Below, piece after piece: positions 1 through 10,490 of a DNA stretch of 10,490 bases. This stretch comes from a virus. The stretch is taken from the UHGV virus genome UHGV-0050635, one strand, 5' to 3'. The notes below the pieces were generated by a model that saw only the letters and a list, made by a program, of their open reading frames with translations, was not told where the DNA came from and did not search any database. The position numbers and the translations under genes are program-made. Position 1 is the first letter of the stretch. The number at the start of each line of letters is the position of its first letter.

Positions 1-611
1 TTTTCAAGGATCGAAACTTCTGGGTTTTCGTCATATTTATTGTGGGGACGTGGTCTTTCTATAACATTTTTGATCAACAACTTTTTCCTGTCTTTTATGC
101 AGGTTTATTCGAATCACACGATGTAGGAACGCGCCTGTATGGTTATCTCAACTCATTCCAGGTGGTACTCGAAGCGCTGTGCATGGCGATTATTCCTTTC
201 TTTGTGAATCGGGTAGGGCCAAAAAATGCATTACTTATCGGAGTTGTGATTATGGCGTTGCGTATCCTTTCCTGCGCGCTGTTCGTTAACCCCTGGATTA
301 TTTCATTAGTGAAGTTGTTACATGCCATTGAGGTTCCACTTTGTGTCATATCCGTCTTCAAATACAGCGTGGCAAACTTTGATAAGCGCCTGTCGTCGAC
401 GATCTTTCTGATTGGTTTTCAAATTGCCAGTTCGCTTGGGATTGTGCTGCTTTCAACGCCGACTGGGATACTCTTTGACCACGCAGGCTACCAGACAGTT
501 TTCTTCGCAATTTCGGGTATTGTCTGCCTGATGTTGCTATTTGGCATTTTCTTCTTGAGTAAAAAACGCGAGCAAATAGTTATGGAAACGCCTGTACCTT
601 CAGCAATATAG
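1..611 (+). CDS. MFS transporter, LacY/oligosaccharide:H+ symporter family, C-terminal fragment (5' end lies outside the window; frame is open from nt 3, stop TAG 609-611)
   Basis: Reading frame is open from the window edge to 611. Translation aligns by eye with the LacY C-terminal half (GTR.YGY...NR.G.KNALL...KYS/ITS.F..R.S.TI.L motifs) and contains multiple hydrophobic helices. Probable host flank gene. Confidence 0.8.
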   Translation, partial: FKDRNFWVFVIFIVGTWSFYNIFDQQLFPVFYAGLFESHDVGTRLYGYLNSFQVVLEALCMAIIPFFVNRVGPKNALLIGVVIMALRILSCALFVNPWIISLVKLLHAIEVPLCVISVFKYSVANFDKRLSSTIFLIGFQIASSLGIVLLSTPTGILFDHAGYQTVFFAISGIVCLMLLFGIFFLSKKREQIVMETPVPSAI

Positions 612-622
612 ACGTAAACTTT

Positions 623-662
623 TTCCGGTTGTTGTCGATAGCTCTATATCCCTCAACCGGAA
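623..662 (+). terminator. Inverted repeat just downstream of the transporter stop (ttccggttg ... caaccggaa, 9-bp stem, ~22-nt loop); weak terminator or recombination-site candidate
   Basis: Perfect 9-bp inverted repeat seen in sequence at 623-631 / 654-662. No strong U-tract follows, so terminator function is uncertain. Confidence 0.3.
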
Positions 663-1140
663 AATAATAATAGTAAAATGCTTAGCCCTGCTAATAATCG
701 CCTAATCCAAACGCCTCATTCATGTTCTGGTACAGTCGCTCAAATGTACTTCAGATGCGCGGTTCGCTGATTTCCAGGACATTGTCGTCATTCAGTGACC
801 TGTCCCGTGTATCACGGTCCTGCGAATTCATCAAGGAATGCATTGCGGAGTGAAGTATCGAGTCACGCCATATTTCGCTATCAGGATTCTGTGTGATGGT
901 TACATCGCCCGGCCCAGGGCTGTTTAGTCATCAGCGCTTTCTGACAGTGCTGAGATTTCAACCTGTTGCAGTAAAAATGAGTAGATATAAGGCAAGTGTG
1001 CTGCCAAACCCATCTTTTACGGGGTGAAGGTAGATTTCGTTTGAAGGGTATCTGGTGTCCCCTGCAGACATCTACTTGGCGCGGCAGGGGATTGATTGGA
1101 ATGATGTTTTTTAGATGTGAAAAATATTTTACCCGCTATT

Positions 1141-1341
1141 TTACCCATTGGCGCGGCTTAAGAGCTTATTTTTGAATTCACAATGGTCACGATATAACCA
1201 TCTTGCTCGTCCGTGGATAACTTTGGCTTTTGGCAGGTCGCCGGACTTAATCCGGTCGTAGATGAAGGTTTTACCGAAGCCAGTATCGGCCATGATGAAT
1301 TTCAAATCAACCAGTGAATCAGGCTGTAGTTCGTGTTGCAT
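1141..1341 (-). CDS. AlpA/Xis-family small DNA-binding protein (putative excisionase or prophage regulatory protein)
   Basis: 66-aa ORF with ATG at 1341 and a GGAGA motif 8 nt upstream. The translation LVDLKFIMADTGFGKTFIYDRIKSGDLPKAKVIHGRARW matches the AlpA/phage-excisionase HTH signature (TG.S.STIY ... G.FP.P.K.G.RA..W). Confidence 0.7.
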   Translation of the reverse strand: MQHELQPDSLVDLKFIMADTGFGKTFIYDRIKSGDLPKAKVIHGRARWLYRDHCEFKNKLLSRANG

Positions 1342-1383
1342 GAGTGCTATCTCCGAATAGGGAATCGAACCTGCAAATCAGGT

Positions 1384-1407
1384 AATAAAAAAACCGCATT
1401 GATGCGG
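1384..1407 (-). terminator. Rho-independent terminator on the - strand between the upstream 114-aa gene and the xis-like gene
   Basis: On the - strand, hairpin ccgca-ttga-tgcgg is followed by TTTTTTTTATT. Confidence 0.6.
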
Positions 1408-1435
1408 CGATGGTAGGTCTGGATATCTTGATAAA

Positions 1436-1461
1436 TGAAAATGCCTCATCGAGTGTGAGGC
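1436..1461 (-). terminator. Terminator-like hairpin immediately after the stop of the 1465..1809 gene (- strand)
   Basis: Stem gcctca/tgaggc with a 7-nt loop; on the - strand it is followed by ATTTTCATTTA. Confidence 0.4.
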
Positions 1462-1464
1462 GGG

Positions 1465-1809
1465 TTAGTCCTTGCGTAGCTCGCTAATTCTTCTGTAAGT
1501 CTCTGGTGCTTTGTTTCCGTGTATCTTCATTTCAGACTTCAACAGAGCAACGAGTGAATCCCATTCGTTGAGGATTCCTTTGAATGCCGGAACGCGCTTT
1601 GCAACCTTGTCGAATGAATCTCTGATTTCTGGAATCTGCTCAACAAGTGCAACGCATCGTCGGAAATCGGCTGCATCATGTGGAGCGCCGAAGTGATGAC
1701 CATAGATATTCTTTTTCAGTCCACATGCGATTGAGGCAAGAGTTGCGCTACTGATGCCGACATCGCCAGTCGATTGCCATTTCAAAACCTTCATAGCCAA
1801 ATCTGACAT
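1465..1809 (-). CDS. Hypothetical phage early protein (114 aa)
   Basis: ORF with ATG at 1809 and GGAGA 6 nt upstream. Same orientation as the left operon. No family recognised. Confidence 0.7.
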   Translation of the reverse strand: MSDLAMKVLKWQSTGDVGISSATLASIACGLKKNIYGHHFGAPHDAADFRRCVALVEQIPEIRDSFDKVAKRVPAFKGILNEWDSLVALLKSEMKIHGNKAPETYRRISELRKD

Positions 1810-1822
1810 TTCTTGTCTCCAT

Positions 1823-1879
1823 AAAACAAAACTCGCCGTAGCGAGTTCAGATAAAAGAAAACCCGCACTCGGCGGGTTC
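1823..1879 (-). terminator. Two tandem intrinsic-terminator hairpins on the - strand (1861-1879 aacccgc-actcg-gcgggtt plus T-tract; 1831-1846 actcgc-cgta-gcgagt plus T-tract)
   Basis: On the - strand each GC-rich stem-loop is followed directly by a T-rich run (TTCTTTTATC and TTTTGTTTTAT). They sit downstream of the 2158..2400 transcription unit and just upstream of the 1809 start codon. Confidence 0.5.
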
Positions 1880-1898
1880 GCATTCGTTCAAATTGCGT

Positions 1899-2180
1899 TT
1901 ACTTCTTGGCGTTCTGTTCATCCATATCGATATACCATGGGTTGCTTCCCTTGGGCATGTTTAACGACTGCTCGCGATAGTATCTGATGCGCTCCATGAA
2001 ATACTCGCGTGAGTGCTCAGGTTGCTCTCATGATACCTGCTCAGTGATAACAGGTATGTTAAGGCGCTCTCTGTACTCCATGCCTGATGCTGCAAGGTCA
2101 ACGTTTACCTTGTTCTGTTTTTCTTTCGATTTCTCGGCGATGTTATGCCTGACATTGTCAACCCGCCTCCTTCTGAACAT
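1899..2180 (-). pseudogene. Small ORF interrupted by a single in-frame TGA (50-aa N-terminal ORF 2028..2180 plus 42 further in-frame codons to 1899); possible nonsense pseudogene or a 50-aa basic protein
   Basis: Manual translation of the - strand: MFRRRRVDNVRHNIAEKSKEKQNKVNVDLAASGMEYRERLNIPVITEQVS-TGA-EQPEHSREYFMERIRYYREQSLNMPKGSNPWYIDMDEQNAKK. No convincing RBS. Overlaps the 3' end of the 2158..2400 gene by 23 nt. Confidence 0.25.
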
Positions 2181-2400
2181 AACGGTTATAAATCAGTCCC
2201 TGAGGGCCATAAGGAAGCGGGATGTGCAACTCCTCTGGTTCAGAAACTATCCATTCTCCGGCCATCTCCGCTGGAGAGGTAATGATAAGTTGTTTGCTAA
2301 TAAAAGGACCACTCCTCTCAACAACAAGCTTACCATCTTCATTAATAAAAGCTTGGATGTCAGGTGTGCTTCCACACTTGGTGATGCAGCGTTTGAACAT
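2158..2400 (-). CDS. Hypothetical small protein (80 aa, MFKRCITKCGSTPDIQAFINEDGKLVVERSG...); moron-like gene with its own promoter. Alternative start at 2415
   Basis: ORF on the - strand with ATG at 2400 (upstream in-frame ATG at 2415). Immediately downstream of an extended -10 promoter element inside an AT-rich intergenic island. Confidence 0.55.
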   Translation of the reverse strand: MFKRCITKCGSTPDIQAFINEDGKLVVERSGPFISKQLIITSPAEMAGEWIVSEPEELHIPLPYGPQGLIYNRYVQKEAG

Positions 2401-2424
2401 TTTGTGTCCCCCCATTTTATGTAC

Positions 2425-2445
2425 GGGGTAATTATAACACATTGA
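2425..2445 (-). promoter_or_regulatory. Candidate sigma70 extended -10 promoter (TGTTATAAT on the - strand, forward 2431-2439) driving the 2158..2400 gene
   Basis: Perfect TGnTATAAT read on the - strand, in a ~75% AT intergenic region (2443-2526). No good -35, as is typical of extended -10 promoters. Confidence 0.4.
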
Positions 2446-2526
2446 AATATAGTAATATTTGACGTAGATTTCTTTTGATCTATAAGCGATTTTTTAATGC
2501 TTTTAAGTTATAAATACTTGTTTTCA

Positions 2527-3198
2527 TCACCCATCTTGCTGCGGTGCTACTATTGAAAAGTGCTCACACCCTTTAGCCCAAATAGTTTTGATAGTTGTCC
2601 AACTGACTGGAACCTTGATTTCGATTCTCCCGCTACAGTCACAAGTTTCGCAATCATCATCACCAAAGCATTCCGGGCAGCTTATAAACGTAGTTTCTGA
2701 AAATTCACCGGATAGCACACCCTTAGCGCCGTTCTCGGCTGTTAGTCTCTTCGGCACCATGACCCAACCATCCGGAATTACCGGAGAGTTGCCGGGTTCT
2801 TTAATGTGCAAGCGAGGCTCACCATCTTTTGGCTCAGGCCACTGGCGCTCCATGTTGATCTTCAATTTATCTTCCATAGCAGCGGTAATTTCAGCATCGC
2901 TGATGCCAGCACGGCGCTGTGAATCCCACAACAGAAACTGCATATCAGCCCACTCGCTAAGATCGTCTGGTTCGGCTGCGGCTTCCAGTGCCTCTTTTGA
3001 GAGGTGTTTCAGTGGACCAATGGGGCCAACGCAGCCAAATGTGGAGTCAGACCATTTGGCATGCTCGTGGCGAATCTGTTCGCGTTCCAGTGATGCCAGT
3101 GCAATTCGTGCCAGTTCCATTTGTTCGCCACGAGTAAGCCCGTTTTCAAGCGGATTTTTAATGAATAATTCGATACGTTCTTTGGTAATAGTGGTCAT
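2527..3198 (-). CDS. Putative MazG-like (all-alpha) dNTP/NTP pyrophosphohydrolase domain protein with a Cys-rich C-terminal domain (223 aa)
   Basis: ATG at 3198 with AAGGTGA upstream. The N-terminal region (EQMELARIALASLEREQIRHEHAKWSDSTFG ... DMQFLLWDSQRRAGISDAEITAAMEDKL) resembles the phage dATP/dGTP pyrophosphohydrolase/MazG-like fold. The C-terminus carries CPECFGDDDCETCDC. Family assignment is from recalled motifs, not a search. Confidence 0.5.
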   Translation of the reverse strand: MTTITKERIELFIKNPLENGLTRGEQMELARIALASLEREQIRHEHAKWSDSTFGCVGPIGPLKHLSKEALEAAAEPDDLSEWADMQFLLWDSQRRAGISDAEITAAMEDKLKINMERQWPEPKDGEPRLHIKEPGNSPVIPDGWVMVPKRLTAENGAKGVLSGEFSETTFISCPECFGDDDCETCDCSGRIEIKVPVSWTTIKTIWAKGCEHFSIVAPQQDG

Positions 3199-3200
3199 AG

Positions 3201-3392
3201 CTATTTCACCTTAATCTCAACATTTCGCAGCTTTAGCTCTACTGGCAGGTCTGACTTTCCTGTTAATGCTAATGCGAGATTTTCTGGGGTAATGAGAGCA
3301 GTTATTGCTTTCCCCATTGCCAGACGAATAATTATTCGTATTTCGCGATCGTCACATGCTCCTGGTCGAACGATTGATATTTGTCCGTCCAT
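3201..3392 (-). CDS. Hypothetical small protein (63 aa, MDGQISIVRPGACDDREIRIIIRLAMGK...)
   Basis: ATG at 3392 preceded by AAGGAG at 6-nt spacing. Its start lies 1 nt after the stop of the upstream gene. The longer track ORF (to 3434) begins with TTG and lacks an RBS. Confidence 0.55.
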   Translation of the reverse strand: MDGQISIVRPGACDDREIRIIIRLAMGKAITALITPENLALALTGKSDLPVELKLRNVEIKVK

Positions 3393-3393
3393 C

Positions 3394-3822
3394 TCACTCT
3401 CCTTTGATGCGAATGCCAGCGGCGCGGGAATCATTCCATCGCTTTACTTCTTCACGAATTACGTCAATGCATTCTTTCGAATCCATTAGGTAATCTTCAT
3501 CAAAAAGACGTTCCTGTTCGTTTTCTATCGCAACAATGATTGCTTCAACTAACTTTTGTGCCTGAGAACCACTTTCTAACTCTGCAATGCGCTTCTCTGC
3601 GGCTTCCAGCTCATCCAGCAGCGCCCGAACTACATCAGCGGTTTTCTGGCACTGGTCAACAATGCTAACGTCACAACCAGTATCGAAACCGTCCTCAGTT
3701 TCAAAGCGGGTCTCTACAGAGTCGCCGTCGATATCAGATGGTTCGAACCCGGCAATGTTTTCCAGAATGCCGATTATGCTTTCTGCGCTATGACGTAATG
3801 CGCGTTTATCGATGTTGCTCAT
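3394..3822 (-). CDS. Hypothetical acidic coiled-coil protein (142 aa)
   Basis: ATG at 3822 with AAGGAG 7 nt upstream. ATGA start/stop overlap with the upstream gene indicates translational coupling. Confidence 0.75.
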   Translation of the reverse strand: MSNIDKRALRHSAESIIGILENIAGFEPSDIDGDSVETRFETEDGFDTGCDVSIVDQCQKTADVVRALLDELEAAEKRIAELESGSQAQKLVEAIIVAIENEQERLFDEDYLMDSKECIDVIREEVKRWNDSRAAGIRIKGE

Positions 3823-4250
3823 GACCGCACTCCTTTGCGAAGCTGGGAAGCAAATTCACGGATAGTGTCATCAAGGTCTGGACACAACAGATTGTCAGCA
3901 AACATCTCTACCCCCTGCGCCCGTACTTCAGCCAGGAAAGCGTCGGTGGCTGGGGTGTCTGATTGCAGAGACTTTGCGCGATAGTCATTCCACCCTCTTG
4001 CATACATGGGATTAACTTGCACTCCATCTTTTACGCAATATGCCTGCCCTCCACGGTTGATAACCTCGATTTCGTCCATAGCGCCAGACTTCAGCCCCGC
4101 ATTCTCCGCTGCCAGCGCCGCGCACTTGGCCTCCGCTTCAGCAAATTTACGCACCAGATATTCAGCGTTTGTTTCGTTAACCTTTAAATCTCGTGGGATG
4201 CATTTACCTTTCAGAAATCCATCCATCTCAATTAGTGACATTTGTTTCAT
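3819..4250 (-). CDS. Hypothetical protein (143 aa)
   Basis: ATG at 4250. ATGA overlap with the stop of the upstream small gene. Part of the coupled leftward operon. Confidence 0.75.
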
Positions 4251-4411
4251 TTCTTCCCACTCCGCAACATCGCATTCAGATATTTGTTTTGATTCACTGA
4301 TGGAAAAGAATTTCTCTTAAGCAATTCCTCTCTCGATGGCATTGGCTTTACGCGTTGGCGAATAATCATTTCTGCCGGAAGAATGCCGGGATTGTATGCA
4401 AGTCCTCTCAT
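4247..4411 (-). CDS. Hypothetical small protein (54 aa from ATG 4411; alternative in-frame starts at 4429 and 4444)
   Basis: GAGGAA lies 6 nt upstream of ATG 4411. The longer track ORF (to 4561) overlaps the neighbouring gene by 140 bp and is unlikely in full. The stop overlaps the next start (ATGA). Confidence 0.45.
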
Positions 4412-4421
4412 GGTAAATTCC

Positions 4422-4715
4422 TCAGTCATTACTGATAGCGCCATAGCGTGAGCGGTAATTACGCAGGCGCGGGTCAATTTCAGGGAAGTGGGTATATGTG
4501 GCTTTGCGGAATGGTCGGATTGATGTCTGGTAAATTCGCTCGCGTTCTTCTTTCTCTGCAAGCCATATACAATGGCGAAATTCCTTTTCCTCTTTCGTTT
4601 CCTGCGGTAGCGACATTATCCGGTCGTAGTTTTTCCTGAATTTATCCAGCACCTCCGATACGGAATTGCCGGAACAGCGGCGCGGGTCATCCGCACCATA
4701 CTGAGGCGCTGGCAT
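4422..4715 (-). CDS. Hypothetical protein (97 aa)
   Basis: ATG at 4715 with AGGAGAA 5 nt upstream, 14 nt downstream of the ssb stop. Confidence 0.7.
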
Positions 4716-4728
4716 GATTTTCTCCTGA

Positions 4729-5235
4729 TTAAATTGCGTGAATAGCGTGACGAGGGAAGGGGAGAGTTACTGGTGCAAAGGGTATATCGTCGTCAAAATC
4801 CATCGGAGGTTCGTTGTGTTGTGCTGGTGATGATTGCCGCTGTGGCTTCTGTGATTGCCTGCTGGCTGCTTGTTGTTTGCTGTCGCCAATGCCGCCAAGC
4901 ATTTGCATCACGCCATTAATTCCGACATGAACCTCGGTTGTGTAACGGTCTTGCCCTGACTGGTCTTTCCACTTTCTGGTTCTCAGCATTCCCTCGAAAT
5001 AAATCTGATCACCTTTTTTCACATACTGCCCCACGACCTCAGCCAGTTTCCCGGATACAGCAACACGATGCCATTCAGTCAATTCCTTTTGCTCGCCAGT
5101 ATTTTTATCTAGCCATTGTTCTGACGTGGCTATTGTCAGGTTAGCGAACGCTGTTCCTGATGGTGAGTATCGAACTTCCGGGTCTTGTCCTACCCGACCA
5201 AGGATAATCACCTTATTTACGCCTCTGCTTGCCAT
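4729..5235 (-). CDS. ssb: Single-stranded DNA-binding protein (phage-encoded SSB) with an unusual 15-aa C-terminal extension beyond the DDDIPF tip
   Basis: Translation [23 protein letters not shown]...TEWHRV...GQDRYTTEV...[11 protein letters not shown] is collinear with E. coli SSB (OB fold, Gly/Gln-rich linker, acidic tip). Here the reading frame continues [15 protein letters not shown] before the stop at 4729-4731. Confidence 0.9.
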
Positions 5236-5943
5236 TTATGCCGCCTGTTTTAGTTCGTTAACTCTGATGTTCATTACCTGAACGCATTTAGCCTGCGCCT
5301 CCTCGTTGCCAGCCATTAATTGCCAGTCACGCTGATAACGCTCGATGAGTTTTTTCTTGTCAGTTTCTGTTGACGCATAATCGCTGAAGTCTTTCAGGAT
5401 TTGTTCGCAGTCAACCGATGGAGATTTCTGGTTGGTATTTTCTGGTGATGGTTTGTTATCTGATGCTGGGATTGCCCATCCCGGCAGTGATGGAGGGAGC
5501 CAGTAAAATCCTGTTCCATCCTTCAGTTTTGCCCTGTGCCACCCCTGCTTTTTATCGAGAGATGTTTGTGCGAAACCTTCCTCAAGGTTATACAGATACC
5601 GACCGATTCCCCACTGAACGGCAGCGCGCTTCATTGCACCGGAACGACCGCCTTTGACGGCTTCTACCTGCGTGTTTTCAGCAGCATCCCATTTGGTTAC
5701 CCATTCGGAATCAATCTTGATTGATATGCCGCATTCAACTCCGCCGTTGTTGGGAATATCGCGGTATTCATTGCGCCATCCTGCTTTGCCGCAAACATCG
5801 TCCAGGCGCTTCATGATTGCCCGGTTCGTGACATAAGCCAGCACCATAGCCCACACCTTGCCATCGCGTGTTTTACCGCTTTGCTGTATTCGCCATTCGA
5901 TATCTTCAGGGCTGAATGGCTCATCGAATTTGTTCAAATCCAT
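5236..5943 (-). CDS. Rad52/Sak-like single-strand annealing protein (phage recombinase), 235 aa
   Basis: ATG at 5943 with GAGGTGA upstream. Motifs KAGWRNEY ... GGVECGISI ... GGRSGAMKRAAVQWGIGRYLYN resemble the Rad52/22-family SSAP core. The stop abuts the ssb start (TAAATG). Confidence 0.7.
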   Translation of the reverse strand: MDLNKFDEPFSPEDIEWRIQQSGKTRDGKVWAMVLAYVTNRAIMKRLDDVCGKAGWRNEYRDIPNNGGVECGISIKIDSEWVTKWDAAENTQVEAVKGGRSGAMKRAAVQWGIGRYLYNLEEGFAQTSLDKKQGWHRAKLKDGTGFYWLPPSLPGWAIPASDNKPSPENTNQKSPSVDCEQILKDFSDYASTETDKKKLIERYQRDWQLMAGNEEAQAKCVQVMNIRVNELKQAA

Positions 5944-6042
5944 AATTCACCTCAGAATGGACACGGCCCAAGGAAATAACGCTGATTTAATACTTCGACT
6001 CGGGACAAATTAAGGCATACCCGCATTCCTTCGCGGTCGCCA

Positions 6043-6201
6043 TTATGGCGATACCAGAGAGCTTTCTGCGTGTACATGCGTCTCTGTAACTTGCTCTCCT
6101 TCACTGTGGTTGCAAGTGACATGAATATCTCCTTCGTTACCGATTAATTCTTTCATCTGACGAATGAATTCTTCGTCTGACCAGTTATCCGTAAAACTCA
6201 T
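6043..6201 (-). CDS. Hypothetical small protein (52 aa) in the position lambda kil occupies (immediately after and overlapping cIII)
   Basis: ATG at 6201 overlaps the TGA of the cIII-like gene (ATGA). Assignment is by position only; no sequence similarity to Kil is claimed. Confidence 0.45.
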   Translation of the reverse strand: MSFTDNWSDEEFIRQMKELIGNEGDIHVTCNHSEGEQVTETHVHAESSLVSP

Positions 6202-6368
6202 GGACGGCCTTGTTGTTTCAAAATATCCCAAAGCTTTTCGAGCAAACTTTTCATTCTTGGTTGTTTAAAGTCTGCTCCGGTTAAAATATTTTTTCGTGAA
6301 TGCTGTACCGATAAAATCGGGTTGAAAGGGCGAACCGATGCCGCCCCTGCAATAGCGAACTGTTGCAT
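6198..6368 (-). CDS. cIII: cIII-like protein (putative FtsH/HflB inhibitor that stabilises cII), 56 aa
   Basis: ATG at 6368 with AGGAG 7 nt upstream. The N-terminus MQQFAIAG and the SLLEKLWDILKQQG segment parallel lambda CIII (MQYAIAG ... SLLERITRKL...IDILNQPG). Position in the operon matches. Confidence 0.6.
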   Translation of the reverse strand: MQQFAIAGAASVRPFNPILSVQHSRKNILTGADFKQPRMKSLLEKLWDILKQQGRP

Positions 6369-6432
6369 AGGATGCTCCTTCTGTTTGATTGCATAACGAA
6401 AACGCCTCAAGTGAAGCGTTATTGGTATGCAT

Positions 6433-6459
6433 ATAAAAAAGCCCTCACACTGGAGGGCG
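6433..6459 (-). terminator. Rho-independent terminator on the - strand upstream of cIII (tL-like, presumably overridden by N)
   Basis: On the - strand, stem gccctc-cagtgt-gagggc is followed by TTTTTTATAT. Confidence 0.6.
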
Positions 6460-6520
6460 AAGAAGATTTCCAATAATCAGAACAAGTCGGCTCCTGTTTA
6501 GTTACGAGCGACATTGCTCC

Positions 6521-6548
6521 GTGTATTCACTCGTTGGAATGAATACAC
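6521..6548. repeat. Perfect 9-bp inverted repeat (gtgtattca N10 tgaatacac) in the intergenic region
   Basis: Seen directly in sequence. Candidate protein-binding site or RNA hairpin within the pL transcript. Confidence 0.5.
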
Positions 6549-6592
6549 AGTGCTGTGTTTATTCTGTTGTTTATGCTAAAAATAAAGGCCGA

Positions 6593-7216
6593 CTATGCGG
6601 CCTCGGAAGGAAGTCCAATCATCTTATTCAAATCTTCTACCCGTAAAGCAGGAAGTGCTGTACTTGCTTTATCTGCTTCTTTTGGTAGCAATTCTTTGCT
6701 TTCAGGCCAAACCTCAATAAGTCGCTTAACTGTTGTGACTGAGTTCAAAGCAGCCCATACATTTGATTCGATATCCTTTTTCTTGGCTTCAAGTTTTTGT
6801 TGCAATGCGCAGATTTCATCAAACCTTTTTGTTATTTCGTGTTCTGCGCTAAACATGCATTTATCTTTTATCGGAGTAGGGAGAAATATATCTTCGCCGT
6901 TGCCGTCTTTCCCATATGAATGCCATCCAACCCTTCTGCCAGATACAGTCAGATAAATTGAAGTAGAACGAAAATCGTATGAGTAAAATGAACATCCCAT
7001 CTTTCCAAGTTCTTCACTTATAGCTACCAACTTGGATGATAACTGATCCACTTCCTCAGTTTTCTTTTTACCGCCAAACGCAATAACTCTGGCGTCAAGT
7101 GCAAGCTGGTTCTTTAACTTTGTTACTTCTTCAAGCTCAGTGAAAACCCCAGACTTAATTAAAGCGTTACGAGCGATTTCCTCTTTCATTCTCGTAGTTA
7201 AGCGGATTGATGACAT
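6593..7216 (-). CDS. Hypothetical protein (207 aa) in the accessory hotspot between cIII and ral
   Basis: ATG at 7216 with GAGGA 6 nt upstream (the track ORF starts at an upstream TTG). No predicted transmembrane character and no recognisable family. A hairpin overlaps the stop codon (6585-6602). Confidence 0.7.
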   Translation of the reverse strand: MSSIRLTTRMKEEIARNALIKSGVFTELEEVTKLKNQLALDARVIAFGGKKKTEEVDQLSSKLVAISEELGKMGCSFYSYDFRSTSIYLTVSGRRVGWHSYGKDGNGEDIFLPTPIKDKCMFSAEHEITKRFDEICALQQKLEAKKKDIESNVWAALNSVTTVKRLIEVWPESKELLPKEADKASTALPALRVEDLNKMIGLPSEAA

Positions 7217-7252
7217 ATTAATTCCTCTCAAATAAGAAAATAAAGGCCACCA

Positions 7253-7453
7253 TCAGGCAGCCTTGTTGTTCAGTTCACCAAGTTCTCTGGCAATCATTGC
7301 CGTCGTTCGTATTGCCCATTTATCGACATATTTCCCATCTTCCATTACAGGAAACATTTCTTCAGGCTTAACCATGCATTCCGATTGCAGCTTGCATCCA
7401 TTGCATCGTTTGAATTGTCCACACCATTGATTCTTATCAATAGTCGTAGTCAT
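7253..7453 (-). CDS. ral: Ral-like restriction alleviation protein (66 aa)
   Basis: Translation MTTTIDKNQWCGQFKRCNGCKLQSECMVKPEEMFPVMEDGKYVDKWAIRTTAMIARELG... matches my recollection of lambda Ral nearly residue for residue, and the gene sits at the lambda ral position between N and cIII. Confidence 0.7.
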   Translation of the reverse strand: MTTTIDKNQWCGQFKRCNGCKLQSECMVKPEEMFPVMEDGKYVDKWAIRTTAMIARELGELNNKAA

Positions 7454-7523
7454 ACGGATAGTCCTGGTATTGTTCCATCACATCTTGAGGATGCTCTTCG
7501 AACTCTTCAAATTCTTCTTCCAT
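7437..7523 (-). CDS. Candidate micro-ORF encoding a 28-aa highly acidic/aromatic peptide (MEEEFEEFEEHPQDVMEQYQDYPYDYDY); not in the supplied ORF track
   Basis: ATG at 7523 preceded by GAGGTGA at 4-nt spacing. The stop TGA at 7437-7439 overlaps the ral start region by 17 nt. Found by manual translation. Confidence 0.35.
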   Translation of the reverse strand: MEEEFEEFEEHPQDVMEQYQDYPYDYDY

Positions 7524-7578
7524 ATCTCACCTCAAATAAGTGGTTTGCTGCGAAAAAGTAAAACAATGATATTCACTT

Positions 7579-7845
7579 CTATTTGTCATCGTGTAAGTGA
7601 CGCAGGTTATTAACTCGCGGCCAGTAATATTTTGGCTTGGCACGAGATCCGGGTCTTGGACCTACGCAAACTATATAGCTCTCTTCTTTCCTCGGAAGGC
7701 CAGGTGCATCTAGCAGACGGCCTAGTTCGAATTTTTTTACGTTGACACCAGGAGGAATCACCTCGACGATAAACCCGATTTTTACCTTCGTTACACCGTT
7801 TGATGAGCTTGACCATTTAACTTCATCGTTCAATTTGAACTTCAT
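7579..7845 (-). CDS. Hypothetical protein (88 aa; alternative ATG at 7848)
   Basis: Tandem ATG codons at 7848 and 7845 with GAGG just upstream. Located directly after the N-remnant stop, i.e. in the position of the first gene downstream of N. Confidence 0.65.
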   Translation of the reverse strand: MKFKLNDEVKWSSSSNGVTKVKIGFIVEVIPPGVNVKKFELGRLLDAPGLPRKEESYIVCVGPRPGSRAKPKYYWPRVNNLRHLHDDK

Positions 7846-7853
7846 CATTAACC

Positions 7854-7955
7854 TCAATCGTAATAAGCTGGAATTGATTTTCCGCGTTGTTTCTGGCGGC
7901 CTGAGCAGGTCACACCCATTTCACTGCGTGGCTTGCTGTAATAAATTCGGTTAGT
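7854..7955 (-). pseudogene. Remnant of the 3' end of a lambda-like N gene (33 in-frame codons: TNRIYYSKPRSEMGVTCSGRQKQRGKSIPAYYD) downstream of nun
   Basis: Manual translation of the - strand between the nun terminator and the 88-aa gene gives a peptide closely resembling the lambda N C-terminal region (..YSKPGERGITCSGRQKIKGKSIP..). There is no RBS and it begins after an in-frame stop. Confidence 0.5.
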
Positions 7956-7960
7956 TCAGA

Positions 7961-7985
7961 CAATAAAAAACCCACCGAAGTGGGC
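7961..7985 (-). terminator. Rho-independent terminator on the - strand immediately after nun
   Basis: On the - strand, stem cccac-ttcg-gtggg is followed by TTTTTTATTG. Confidence 0.65.
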
Positions 7986-8314
7986 TATGACCATTTTTTA
8001 TTTGGATTTCGTTGGTGAGCGTGATTAACAACTCTGTGCATTACATCCTCATATTTTTCATCTTCAATTTTTTCGACATCGCGAGGAAATGGTGTTGCTA
8101 ATGCTTTGTCAACTTTATCCATTGGGTCTTCATTAATCTTATATTCAGGACCGTCATCTATAGCATTAAATCCAGGTGTTACACCGTTTTTTAATGCATA
8201 TGCTATCCTCTTTTCCCATCTCGCTATTCTCCTCCTGTCTCGAGATGTAAGACCTCTATCAGATACTTTTCTGTTTTGTCCGCGGTCAGGATTAACATAA
8301 ATAGTCTTTTTCAC
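7985..8314 (-). CDS. nun: Nun-like transcription termination / phage-exclusion protein (HK022 Nun type), about 109 aa
   Basis: Contains the arginine-rich motif DRGLTSRDRRRIARWEKRIAYALK and the C-terminus ...NPNKKWS with the penultimate Trp characteristic of HK022 Nun. Start is uncertain: GTG 8314, ATG 8317 or ATG 8323. Confidence 0.8.
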   Translation of the reverse strand: MKKTIYVNPDRGQNRKVSDRGLTSRDRRRIARWEKRIAYALKNGVTPGFNAIDDGPEYKINEDPMDKVDKALATPFPRDVEKIEDEKYEDVMHRVVNHAHQRNPNKKWS

Positions 8315-8325
8315 CATAAGCATAC

Positions 8326-8631
8326 TCAATAAGCACCGTACGGTAGTTTACTGTACAATTTTATTTTTTGGACTGCATGTATTTTGTTTCCTAATGGGTT
8401 TGAATCTTTGTAATAAATACTTCTATTTTTTCGAACGACTTCTTCTTTCTTCTTGCAGCAAAGGATTCCTAGTGATGCTGCTTTGTCTGCTTTGACGCAA
8501 CCAGAGAGCTTTAGCGCAATTTTTCGCGCCAGTGCTTCATTACTGCGTCGCTCGGCAATAAGTTCTGCTCTGCGAGCTTTGTAGCGGCTTTTTGCCGTAC
8601 CTTTGGATTCTTTCCAGACAATGGTTACCAT
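8326..8631 (-). CDS. N: N-like transcription antiterminator, phage-21-type arginine-rich motif (101 aa)
   Basis: ATG at 8631 with AAGGAG 6 nt upstream. The N-terminal GTAKSRYKARRAELIAERR is the phage 21 N ARM as I recall it. The C-terminal region resembles N-family tails. A cognate nutL lies upstream. Confidence 0.8.
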   Translation of the reverse strand: MVTIVWKESKGTAKSRYKARRAELIAERRSNEALARKIALKLSGCVKADKAASLGILCCKKKEEVVRKNRSIYYKDSNPLGNKIHAVQKIKLYSKLPYGAY

Positions 8632-8741
8632 GATGGTCTCCTTTAAGTGGCTTTGGCGCATGACGCGTCGAGGTGCTTATCTTCTCGATCGCTGTCTTGC
8701 AGCTGCAATTCGCGCCATCCCCAAAACCACTCAAGTTCTGG

Positions 8742-8781
8742 TCTCAACGGTTAGGTTGAGAGTCCGTCGATGTTAAAGAGC
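8742..8781 (-). promoter_or_regulatory. nutL: boxA (GCTCTTTAACA, forward 8771-8781) and boxB hairpin (TCTCAAC-CTAACC-GTTGAGA, forward 8742-8761)
   Basis: Read on the - strand between pL and N. BoxA matches the lambdoid boxA consensus family. BoxB is a 7-bp stem with a CUAACC loop, and a near-identical boxA and loop occur at nutR. Confidence 0.6.
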
Positions 8782-8827
8782 CTGCCAATCTGTTCCGTTT
8801 GGCTTCCAGCGTCCTGCTGATGGCTTA

Positions 8828-8881
8828 AATTTAAGACTTCTTAATTTATTGGTCAAGTGCATTTTTGAAGAAAACTTAATT
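8828..8881 (-). promoter_or_regulatory. OL/pL: two P22-type operators (8829-8846 ATTTAAGACTTCTTAATT; 8864-8881 TTTGAAGAAAACTTAATT) overlapping a leftward promoter (-35 TTGACC forward 8851-8856, -10 TAAATT forward 8828-8833)
   Basis: Operators fit the P22 c2 consensus AnTnAAG-N4-CTTnAnT. The promoter hexamers on the - strand are separated by a 17-bp spacer. Confidence 0.6.
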
Positions 8882-8920
8882 TTATGGGCGTGAATTTAGT
8901 TTGTCTTTGATTTTTAACGG

Positions 8921-8948
8921 GAAATAAAAAAGGGGCGAAAGCCCCTTA
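8921..8948 (-). terminator. Rho-independent terminator of the repressor transcript (- strand)
   Basis: On the - strand, stem aggggc-tttc-gcccct is followed by TTTTTTATTTCC. It overlaps the c2 stop codon. Confidence 0.7.
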
Positions 8949-9596
8949 AGGAAGGTTTGCTAGCTTGGCATCAACGACAACGCCAATGATTTTACAGTTC
9001 CCATTGATTTCAATCATTGGGTATTGTGGATTGAGTGGTTTCAGGAATTTTCTACCGGCATCAATAACTAACTTTTTGAATGTCGCCTCGTTTTCTCCTT
9101 CAAGTTTGGCGACTACCAACTTTCCATTACGTGGTTCGACTTCTGGGTCGACGAGAATAATCATCCCCTCAGGAATACTCAGTCCTGCCGGGGCAGTCAT
9201 TGAATCGCCTTTAACGTCGAGCCAAAAAGAGTCTTCAGAACAATCTACCGTTGTGTCGTACCAGTTATCTATTGCACGCCTATGATATGGCTCTACAGCT
9301 TCCATCCAACATCCTGCGCTTACCCAACTAATTAGAGGATACGAACCTCTTGGATCATGCCTGCTGTGATAGGCAATGTTTGAAAGACTATCCTCTCCTT
9401 TCAACAGGTAATCAGGGGAGCACTGCAAAGCCTTGGCTAAGGCCAATAGGTTTTCGCCATTGGGCTCAGTTTCAGATCGCTCCCATTGGGAAATAGCAAC
9501 ATTAGACACGCCAACCATCTTGCCAAGGGCAGCCTGCCTAATCTTGAGTTCTTTTCTGCGAGCGCGAATACGCTCACCCATCAGTTGTGTATTCAT
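8946..9596 (-). CDS. c2: Phage repressor, P22 C2 type (LexA/S24-like autocleaving repressor with N-terminal HTH), 216 aa
   Basis: Translation MNTQLMGERIRARRKELKIRQAALGKMVGVSNVAISQWERSETEPNG...IIGVVVDAKLANLP is nearly identical to my recollection of P22 C2. P22-type operators flank it on both sides. Confidence 0.9.
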   Translation of the reverse strand: MNTQLMGERIRARRKELKIRQAALGKMVGVSNVAISQWERSETEPNGENLLALAKALQCSPDYLLKGEDSLSNIAYHSRHDPRGSYPLISWVSAGCWMEAVEPYHRRAIDNWYDTTVDCSEDSFWLDVKGDSMTAPAGLSIPEGMIILVDPEVEPRNGKLVVAKLEGENEATFKKLVIDAGRKFLKPLNPQYPMIEINGNCKIIGVVVDAKLANLP

Positions 9597-9662
9597 AGTT
9601 AAGACATCTTAAATAAACTTGACTTAAGATTCCTTTGGTGGATAATTTAAGTGTTCTTTAAT
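9597..9662. promoter_or_regulatory. OR region: three P22-type operators (OR3 9597-9614, OR2 9622-9639, OR1 9645-9662) with pR (-35 TTGACT 9619-9624, -10 GATAAT 9641-9646) and divergent pRM
   Basis: AGTTAAGACATCTTAAAT and ATTTAAGTGTTCTTTAAT are perfect matches to AnTnAAG-N4-CTTnAnT; ACTTAAGATTCCTTTGGT has one mismatch. The region lies between divergent c2 and cro. Confidence 0.7.
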
Positions 9663-9676
9663 TTCGGAGCGAGTCT

Positions 9677-9862
9677 ATGTACAAAAAAGATGTTATTGAC
9701 CACTTCGGAACCCAGCGTGCTGTTGCTAAAGCACTAGGCATTAGCGATGCAGCAGTCTCTCAGTGGAAAGAAGTTATCCCAGAGAAAGACGCCTATCGAT
9801 TGGAAATCGTTACAGCTGGCGCCCTGAAGTATCAAGAAAGTGCTTACCGCCAAGCGGCATAA
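9677..9862 (+). CDS. cro: Cro repressor, P22 type (61 aa)
   Basis: Translation MYKKDVIDHFGTQRAVAKALGISDAAVSQWKEVIPEKDAYRLEIVTAGALKYQ... matches recalled P22 Cro. GGAG RBS upstream. Confidence 0.9.
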   Translation: MYKKDVIDHFGTQRAVAKALGISDAAVSQWKEVIPEKDAYRLEIVTAGALKYQESAYRQAA

Positions 9863-9870
9863 GCAAATTG

Positions 9871-9910
9871 CTCTTTAACAGTTCTGGCCTTTCACCTCTA
9901 ACCGGGTGAG
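9871..9910 (+). promoter_or_regulatory. nutR: boxA (GCTCTTTAACA 9871-9881) and boxB hairpin (TCACC-TCTAACCG-GGTGA 9893-9910)
   Basis: Same boxA as nutL and a boxB loop sharing CUAACC with the nutL boxB. Located between cro and c1, as in lambda. Confidence 0.55.
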
Positions 9911-9959
9911 CAAACATCAGCGGCAAATCCATTGGGTGTGCCGCTATAACTCAATATCA

Positions 9960-10000
9960 ATATAGGAAAATTAACAAATGGCACAAGCAAGCTACAGCAA
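9960..10000 (-). promoter_or_regulatory. Candidate pRE (cII/C1-activated establishment promoter): TTGC-N6-TTGC on the - strand (forward 9987-10000)
   Basis: The - strand reads TTGCTGTAGCTTGC overlapping the 5' end of c1, the classical arrangement of the cII binding site at pRE. Confidence 0.5.
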
Positions 10001-10274
10001 GCCAACACAGCGAGAAATTGATCGCGCTGAAACTGATTTACTCATCAACCTGTCAACGCTTACCCATCGCGGTCTGGCAAAGATGATTGGCTGTCATGAA
10101 TCGAAGATAAGCAGAACGGACTGGAGATTTATTGCTTCGGTCTTGTGTGCTTTCGGAATGGCATCAGACATCAGTCCGATTAGCAGGGCTTTTAAGTATG
10201 CGCTTGATGAAATCACAAAGAAAAAATCCCCGGCCGCCACCGAGGATTTTAAGCAAATTGATATGCAATTCTGA
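9978..10274 (+). CDS. c1: cII-like transcriptional activator (P22 C1 type), 98 aa
   Basis: HTH region plus C-terminus [18 protein letters not shown] paralleling lambda cII (..KKRPAATERSEQIQMEF). Position after cro and nutR. Confidence 0.85.
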
Positions 10275-10306
10275 GGGAATTACTGGATCAATCCACAGGA
10301 GTAATT

Positions 10307-10453
10307 ATGACAAAACAACTCAGTCCTTACCAGGACAAAATTCACAAACACATACTACGTGATCGCTTCCTGTCCAGCTTCAAGCAGCCTGGTCGATTTC
10401 GGGCTGAGTTGGAAAAGGTGAAGCTGATGCAGAAGGAGAAAGGTCATGAGTAA
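10307..10453 (+). CDS. Small hypothetical protein (48 aa), P22 orf48-like, between c1 and the replication gene
   Basis: ATG at 10307 with AGGAG 6 nt upstream. Manual translation [48 protein letters not shown]. The stop overlaps the next start. Confidence 0.55.
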
Positions 10454-10490
10454 TCTTGCAACCGTAACACATTTAAGGCCTTCACAACGG
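10446..10490 (+). CDS. 5' end of the next rightward gene, probably the O-like replication initiator (truncated by the window edge)
   Basis: ATG at 10446 with AGGAGAAAGG upstream, overlapping the orf48-like stop. Only 15 codons are visible ([15 protein letters not shown]), so the identity is positional. Confidence 0.35.

Follow-up and report, generated by a model that had tools for sequence, protein, structure and literature searches.

HK620, Sf6 and CUS-3 have in common the recombination module of KplE1 (CPS-53), in which the promoter of intS overlaps attL next to argW and the transcription of intS and torI is uncoupled (PMC2951348). In the Sf6 record the integrase gene (16781-17938) is followed by the attP core (18099-18114) and then by the torI homologue (18188-18388) and, as an attP of this type lies between int and xis, integration leaves one of the two genes at each end of the prophage. 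The present study deals with a stretch of 10,490 nucleotides of the virus genome UHGV-0050635, referred to below as the window. With a probability of about 90%, it represents the point where the cscB side of an Escherichia coli chromosome meets the attR end of a temperate lambdoid prophage inserted in argW, and from there it covers the whole leftward early (pL) operon and the immunity region, up to where the replication genes begin.

An earlier note on this DNA had described a mosaic lambdoid prophage early region, possibly belonging to a defective element. Here, every protein of the window, together with the window DNA, was compared locally with phage 21, P22, HK022, lambda, Sf6 and mEp235. 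The prophage part was found to hold a contiguous lambdoid early-left operon and immunity region that extend up to the window end. Genes lie on the minus strand unless the plus strand is given.

The attR junction at argW and the place of the integrase

The junction was delimited by querying 5,426 complete E. coli genomes with window positions 560-1400, and the matches fall into two sets. Genomes with an empty site, e.g. strain Y5, match positions 560-1067 at 100% identity, and in these a minus-strand tRNA-Arg gene (argW) begins exactly at the equivalent of window position 1053. The second set, which comprises prophage-only genomes and phages (K-12 derivatives, Sf6 and Kapi1), matches from 1053 onwards. 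Since host matches end at 1067 and phage matches begin at 1053, the prophage begins at 1053, and the region start at 612 proposed in the earlier note falls in host DNA. The segment common to both sets (1053-1067, minus strand; TGGTGTCCCCTGCAG, or CTGCAGGGGACACCA when read on the other strand) corresponds, in reverse complement, to the final 15 nt of argW. It lies where the matches change from host to phage, and agrees with 15 of the 16 nt of the annotated Sf6 attP core. As a 15-bp duplicate of the 3' end of argW, it constitutes the att core and marks the attR-side boundary of the prophage.

On the phage side of the core, the attR arm (1068-1140) lies upstream of torI, and from the work on KplE1 (PMC2951348) we infer that it contains protein-binding sites. 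Window 1053-1408 aligns with Sf6 18100-18454 at 95.8% identity and with the attR-torI segment of KplE1 in K-12-derived strains at about 97%. The adjoining gene (1141-1341) encodes a KplE1/Sf6-type excisionase, or recombination directionality factor, of 66 amino acids (aa), which matches Sf6 gp18 and TorI of E. coli ACN001 at every residue (100%); its product is the PGAP 'response regulator inhibitor TorI' (WP_001163428.1) and belongs to the excisionase family PHROG 66. With an att core formed by the 3' end of argW at the host-prophage boundary and a TorI-type directionality factor beside attR, the junction carries two features that characterise the KplE1/Sf6/HK620-type module.

The host flank is composed of the 3' end of cscB, a gene of the csc sucrose cluster encoding a sucrose/oligosaccharide MFS permease, of which the last 189 codons are present (42-611, plus strand) and whose product is an oligosaccharide MFS transporter in every matching E. 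coli genome annotation. It is followed by non-prophage intergenic DNA between cscB and the argW position (612-1052; 440 bp). In some genomes this interval is annotated as a DUF4942-domain fragment, possibly left over from an older island at argW.

An integrase or integrase remnant of six types was sought in the window and none was found. The earlier note had recorded no integrase at the att-proximal end; the possibly defective or grounded condition which it had derived from this absence does not follow. In the KplE1/Sf6 arrangement attP lies between int and xis, and the torI/attR end is normally devoid of int, as seen in the Sf6 map, in the description of KplE1 (PMC2951348) and in the complete genome of strain 90-9280, so that the missing gene is uninformative on decay. 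The prophage of 90-9280, a relative of about 43 kb at the same site, has argW and intS at one end and torI and cscB at the other. A full P22-like late region lies between these ends, the genes running in the order yfdC, argW, intS, tailspike, P22-like virion genes, lysis genes, Q, nin, replication genes, cII, cro, repressor, N, Nun, Rad52, torI and cscB, and the prophage is essentially complete save for an insertion sequence and a few gene fragments in the nin region. In 11 further contigs, retrieved by exact-protein look-ups, the 66-aa gene at the torI position likewise adjoins cscB or dsdC with no integrase beside it. The window reaches about 9.4 kb into the prophage, and intS would be expected in the opposite (attL) end, next to an intact argW.

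It is nonetheless worth weighing whether loss of the integrase has left the element as a defective, grounded or domesticated remnant unable to excise. Such a history is quite unlikely. It would be in keeping with a window that holds neither an integrase nor a fragment of one, with a prophage end that lies outside the window, with a theta-like pseudogene at 1902-2180, and with the existence of defective relatives at argW, since KplE1 of K-12 has been described as defective (PMC2951348) and in ACN001 ninF is joined to a portal fragment. The first of these points is the normal layout of the module, as set out above. Moreover, the named genes of the window, early and regulatory ones included, are all full-length in comparison with their homologues, the theta-like reading frame being the only visible lesion; the att core, torI, the operators and the nut sites are intact, and identical or near-identical to those of functional phages. 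Finally, only 3 differences over 8.9 kb separate the window from another prophage, which argues against long-term decay.

Some points weigh against reading the window as one arm of a working temperate prophage. The open reading frame (ORF) at 1902-2180, similar to the theta subunit (HolE) of DNA polymerase III, is a probable pseudogene, as its sequence and translation contain a single in-frame TGA at 2028-2030, at what we take to be the arginine of the HolE motif VEREQPEH. The copy in ACN001 is labelled 'theta, internal stop' by PGAP, and the region is near-identical in contigs L009-L016. ACN001 (NZ_CP007442) is the complete-genome relative with the highest window coverage, and its prophage, which carries an internal deletion, is probably defective: in its locus (L001, 19250-20700) ninF is followed directly by an antirepressor fragment and by a portal gene without its N-terminus. 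The opposite prophage end, with intS and the late genes, lies beyond the window and could be truncated there. Expression, antitermination, exclusion by Nun and excision would, moreover, be as in the homologues from which they are deduced.

The imm21 block, N and Nun

The prophage repressor gene (8946-9596) encodes 216 aa with a helix-turn-helix domain (PF01381) and an S24 LexA-like autopeptidase domain (PF00717). The product is the equivalent of P22 C2, to which it is 94% identical, and it matches the phage 21 translation at 100%; the cro gene (9677-9862, plus strand, 61 aa) gives 98% and 100% in the same comparisons. Between the two genes, the OR operators with pRM and pR (9597-9676; pR running from the -35 at 9619 to the -10 at 9646 in a promoter scan) show no difference from phage 21 over 91 bp and 4 differences from P22. 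The OL operators and pL (8800-8947, minus strand; -35 at 8856 to -10 at 8828, again from the promoter scan) and the terminator that a terminator scan places after the repressor gene (8947-8930, minus strand) lie in a region identical to the annotated OL1-3 and terminator of phage 21. At the DNA level, 8409-10314 is 97.6% identical to phage 21, and 8767-9880 is 83.5% identical to P22.

As repressor, Cro, operators and the N/nut system all correspond to phage 21, immunity and antitermination functions form one contiguous imm21 block. Judged by sequence, the repressor, Cro, OL and OR assign the region to imm21, and P22 immC is not its closest relation. The P22-type immunity of the earlier note has to be replaced accordingly, P22 being the more distant relative; from the alignments, the P22 immC label is close in function, not in origin. 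Poteete and colleagues are said to have noted in 1980 that the operators of P22 and phage 21 are closely similar.

The nut sites fit the same assignment. On the minus strand, nutL (8742-8781) has boxA GCTCTTTAA at 8781-8773 and a boxB hairpin at 8761-8742; it is identical to phage 21, in whose record the aligned positions bear the labels boxA-L and nutL. On the plus strand, nutR (9870-9910) has boxA GCTCTTTAA at 9870-9878 and a boxB hairpin at about 9891-9910, and it falls in the 97.6% block, which in the record of phage 21 bears the annotations boxA-R and nutR. The N antiterminator (8326-8631, 101 aa) is a hybrid: overall it is 78% identical to phage 21 N by BLASTP, with 57 of residues 1-60 identical, the arginine-rich motif GTAKSRYKARRAELIAERR included, while its C-terminus departs from phage 21 and matches the N remnant upstream of HK022 nun, as judged from tblastn and the boundaries of the DNA blocks. 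The N motif and the boxA-boxB elements of both nut sites, identical to those of phage 21, bear out the phage 21-type N/nut system proposed earlier and, with their predicted boxB hairpins, point to antitermination of that type.

Downstream of N, the nun gene (7985-8323) encodes a transcription arrest and exclusion factor of 112 aa (PHROG 5632, E 5e-71, spanning residues 1-112 of 112), 97% identical to HK022 Nun over its full length, which upholds the HK022-type designation, and 98% identical to that of mEp235. The C-terminus (...NPNKKWS) is present, and the protein is predicted to have both the N-terminal arginine-rich motif and the RNA polymerase-interacting tail of the family. An intrinsic-terminator-like hairpin (7969-7986, minus strand), recognised from a consensus scan and the sequence, directly follows nun. 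The DNA at 7968-8443 is 96.8% identical to HK022. The 3' part of N (8326-8443, minus strand) corresponds there to the non-coding N remnant that overlaps putL (locus L006, about 9070-9280), which hints that the HK022 nun region derived from an N-nun phage like the present one. It was also observed that the nun start codon is 3 bases from the N stop (8326-8329), so that the two genes abut. With this arrangement, and with the repressor gene closed off by a strong terminator (8947-8930), the route by which nun would be expressed in a repressed lysogen is puzzling.

Beyond cro and nutR, the plus strand continues with a cII-type activator gene (9978-10274, 98 aa) whose product has 97% identity with its HK022 counterpart, 99% with that of mEp235 and 88% with that of phage 21; the Pfam model Phage_CII recognises the identical product of related contigs. 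It is followed by a gene for a DUF2740 protein (10307-10453, plus strand), a homologue of P22 orf48 (100% identical to HK022 and mEp235, 85% to P22; PF10872 in related contigs). The start of an O-like replication initiator gene (10446-10490, plus strand), identified from its translation and from a Phage_rep_O gene at the same position in a related prophage (L010), continues past the window end.

Recombination genes and cargo of the pL operon

The recombination genes of the operon comprise a Rad52/Rad22-family single-strand annealing protein (5236-5943, 235 aa; PF04098, E 5e-26), a phage SSB (4729-5235, 168 aa; PF00436, E 8e-36) and the anti-RecBCD protein Abc2 (4422-4715; PF11043, E 5e-63). 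The annealing protein is 100% identical to Sf6 gp28 and to mEp235_032, the SSB is 99% identical to that of mEp235, and Abc2 is 93% identical to P22 and 97-98% identical to HK022, Sf6 and mEp235, so that the Rad52 and SSB module recognised in the earlier note is confirmed as one of the Sf6/mEp235 type, with Abc2 and without exo, bet or gam. Similarity to or remnants of exo, bet, gam, abc1, kil and sieB were sought in the window and none was found. The C-terminal 79 aa of the annealing protein (5239-5475, minus strand) are Erf-like, being 63% identical to the C-terminus of P22 Erf; unrelated annealase cores thus have one tail domain in common. Two overlapping small ORFs (5952-6201), at 5952-6122 (56 aa) and 6043-6201 (52 aa), are homologues of Sf6 gp29 and gp30 at 100% identity and belong to PHROG 1723 and 2123, respectively.

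The next gene (6198-6368) encodes a divergent CIII-family protein of 56 aa (PHROG 550, E 4e-22), presumed to be an FtsH inhibitor, and no kil gene lies beside it. The product has 28% identity with both lambda CIII and P22 C3, with a pairwise E of 0.025 against lambda CIII, and tblastn gave no match at E<1e-3 in lambda, phage 21, P22, HK022, Sf6 or mEp235. It is 100% identical to the allele of HK542, mEpX1, HK140 and SPN9CC. As membership in the CIII family is apparent at the profile level only, the lambda-type label previously attached to this gene is wrong. The ral gene (7253-7453; PF11058, E 1.5e-47) is of the lambda type as had been suggested, its restriction alleviation product being 97% identical to both lambda and phage 21 Ral; it is preceded by an ORF of 28 codons (7437-7523), recognised by translation, for an acidic peptide like that of lambda orf28.

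Two further genes of the operon are less familiar. A protein of 207 aa with an Nmad5 domain (6593-7216; PF18757, E 3e-71), 97% identical to mEp235_037, is encoded in the pL operon with ral and cIII on either side; the sole functional data found for its family concern a Dhillonvirus, in which point mutations of nmad5 lead to escape from Tmn defence (PMC11846954). The second encodes a conserved protein of 89 aa ('p92'; 7579-7848; PHROG 11941, E 7e-46), has a GAGG ribosome-binding site, and comes after the terminator-like hairpin that ends nun. Its neighbours are nun and ral; in lambda and P22 this region holds sieB, there encoded on the opposite strand. On related contigs the 89-aa gene is frequently left unlisted by gene callers. 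The gene is present in about 50 of the 5,426 complete E. coli genomes (about 1%), and tblastn against 50,697 phage records gave zero matches. Homologue searches returned hypothetical proteins only, in 31 clusters that form a small family conserved within Enterobacterales. An AlphaFold2 model, with a predicted local distance difference test score of 84, suggests a small SH3/chromo-barrel-like beta barrel, for which a Foldseek search of the PDB gave no significant match, the hits being generic SH3, chromo-barrel or L19-like folds with a best E of 0.06. PADLOC defence models gave no match at E<=0.01 among ten cargo proteins, NCBIfam yielded no further names, and an Rfam search of the window at E<=0.1 returned nothing. 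That the 89-aa protein or the Nmad5 protein is a new anti-defence or superinfection-exclusion factor can be entertained as a conjecture, but a doubtful one.

Between the recombination genes and torI lies the ea region. From the abc2 side, it comprises genes for a DUF2737 protein (4247-4411, 54 aa; PF10930, E 2e-31), a 143-aa protein (3819-4250; PHROG 614, E 1.5e-52) 39% identical to the P22 eaE region, and an Ead/Ea22-like protein (3394-3822, 142 aa; PF13935, E 4e-9) found as an exact copy on at least 24 contigs. Next come a small protein of 63-77 aa (3201-3434; PHROG 1222, E 4e-39), 63 aa long in related contigs, and an EaA-like protein (2527-3198, 223 aa; PF04447, E 7e-42), 62% identical to the P22 eaA region, with a DUF550 dATP/dGTP pyrophosphohydrolase domain and a Cys-rich C-terminus. 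Another small protein of 80-94 aa (2158-2442; PHROG 9613, E 3e-51) precedes the theta-like ORF described above, and the 114-aa protein next to torI (1465-1809; PHROG 1229, E 7e-52) is 98% identical to an HK022 ORF.

Taken together, the gene content suggests how such a prophage would function. The imm21 repressor would bind OL and OR and keep pL and pR shut, and its S24 domain would permit SOS-induced self-cleavage and derepression. The transcript from pL would then pass nutL, where the phage 21-type N would render RNA polymerase resistant to terminators, and would extend in order through nun, the 89-aa gene, ral, the Nmad5 gene, cIII, the genes of the Rad52-family annealing protein, SSB and Abc2, the ea genes and torI. 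TorI would direct excision with IntS, whose gene would stand beside the intact argW, at the end of the prophage away from torI. Nun would be expected to arrest transcription on superinfecting lambda-type phages, the phage itself using a boxB of the phage 21 type, whereas Ral would alleviate type I restriction, Abc2 would modify RecBCD, and CIII would protect CII.

Mosaicism and relation to known systems

The mosaic character attributed to the region is borne out by the comparison, in which the best matches alternate among Sf6/KplE1, HK022, mEp235, lambda or phage 21, and DNA known from prophages only. Starting from the att core, the closest sequences are Sf6/KplE1 (1053-1408), HK022 (1388-1826), the ACN001 prophage (1827-3198), prophage contigs only (3199-3926), HK022 again (4137-4718), mEp235/Sf6 (4729-6201) and a cIII of the HK542 type (6202-6374). 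They are followed by mEp235 (6375-7236), lambda/phage 21 (7237-7551), prophage-only DNA (7552-7890) and mEp235 (7890-10453), which is itself composed here of HK022, phage 21 and again HK022. Lambdoid phages are normally mosaic to this degree. In a megablast search of the 5,426 complete E. coli genomes the best window coverage was 67%, and the sequenced phage mEp235 matches 52% of the window at 97.7% identity.

Closer relatives were found among prophages. A single alignment covers 87% of the window (1388-10490) at 99.8% identity to the prophage of the draft E. coli genome GCA_048222465.1 (loci L010 and L024); in L010 there are 3 mismatches over 1577-10490 (about 8.9 kb, 99.97%), and the remaining ones lie before 1577. 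This prophage lies next to torS, and its ea genes are directly adjoined by genes for Exc and Int of the HK022 type. Conversely, two argW prophages with a different immunity region (L012 and L016) show 3 mismatches over window 1-6201 (99.95%), the first at 1660. One early region thus occurs on two integration cassettes, and the crossover between these falls at about 1577-1659, within the ea gene for the 114-aa protein that both have. With about 8.9 kb in which 3 bases differ between a prophage with the torI/argW end and one with HK022-type int, this is a clean case of integration-cassette swapping.

An assembly chimera, in which the cscB-torI junction was joined to an imm21/Nun early region from argW and HK022-site prophages of one genome, could give rise to the same two match ranges and to their overlap of about 4.6 kb, beyond short-read span, but it is very improbable, given that lambdoid mosaics arise by natural recombination in just such common segments, that many independent complete genomes pair argW/torI ends with imm21-N-Nun (e.g. 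90-9280 and the locus L032), and that no Ns or composition break hint at a join.

The preferred reading, a junction of the E. coli chromosome with a temperate prophage in argW, makes the element a routine E. coli lambdoid prophage arm, whose modules have already been sequenced at 96-100% identity, and its position among the known systems can be stated module by module. P22 resembles it in C2, Cro, Abc2 and OR to the degrees given above, as well as in its EaA-like and orf48-like genes. It differs in the immunity-region DNA, in nut boxB and in N (gp24); P22 has, in addition, erf, abc1, arf, kil, c3, sieB and gene 17, and its int stands beside xis at its own att. HK022 shares Nun and the block at 7968-8443, in which the 3' part of the window's N survives as a remnant, but it has no functional N, uses put RNA and has another immunity region. 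Phage 21 (OL657228) is the source of closest resemblance for the repressor, Cro, OR, OL, nutL, nutR, the first 60 residues of N, and ral; unlike the window it carries exo/bet/gam, kil, a lambda-like cIII, ea10 and an int/xis pair at icd, has no Nun, and ends its N differently.

Among sequenced phages, mEp235 (JQ182731/NC_019708) agrees with the window in the order of N, Nun, Nmad5, cIII, Rad52, SSB and Abc2 and in its imm21-type repressor and Cro, with 99.2% identity from nun to the DUF2740 gene (7890-10453), 97% for Nmad5 and 96.7% for the Rad52-SSB segment. It differs in possessing HK022-type int/xis and att, kil, a lambda-like cIII and an exonuclease gene, and in lacking ral, the 89-aa gene and the ea genes of window 1810-4260. 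The prophage of GCA_048222465.1 (JBBWCI010000005.1) is set apart by its torS site with HK022-type Exc/Int, as against torI and argW near cscB in the window.

At that end of the element the likeness is to the module of KplE1, Sf6, HK620 and CUS-3. Elsewhere these relatives diverge from the window, as Sf6 has a 434-like immunity region, a different N and no Nun, and KplE1 is a remnant without the CI regulator module (PMC2951348). For argW-integrating phages of the KplE1/Sf6/HK620 type in general, the lack of int beside the excisionase gene does not signify decay. The window conforms to this module in its core at the 3' end of argW, in a TorI equal to Sf6 gp18, in an attR arm that is 96-97% identical, and in having torI at one end of the prophage, with intS expected at the other.

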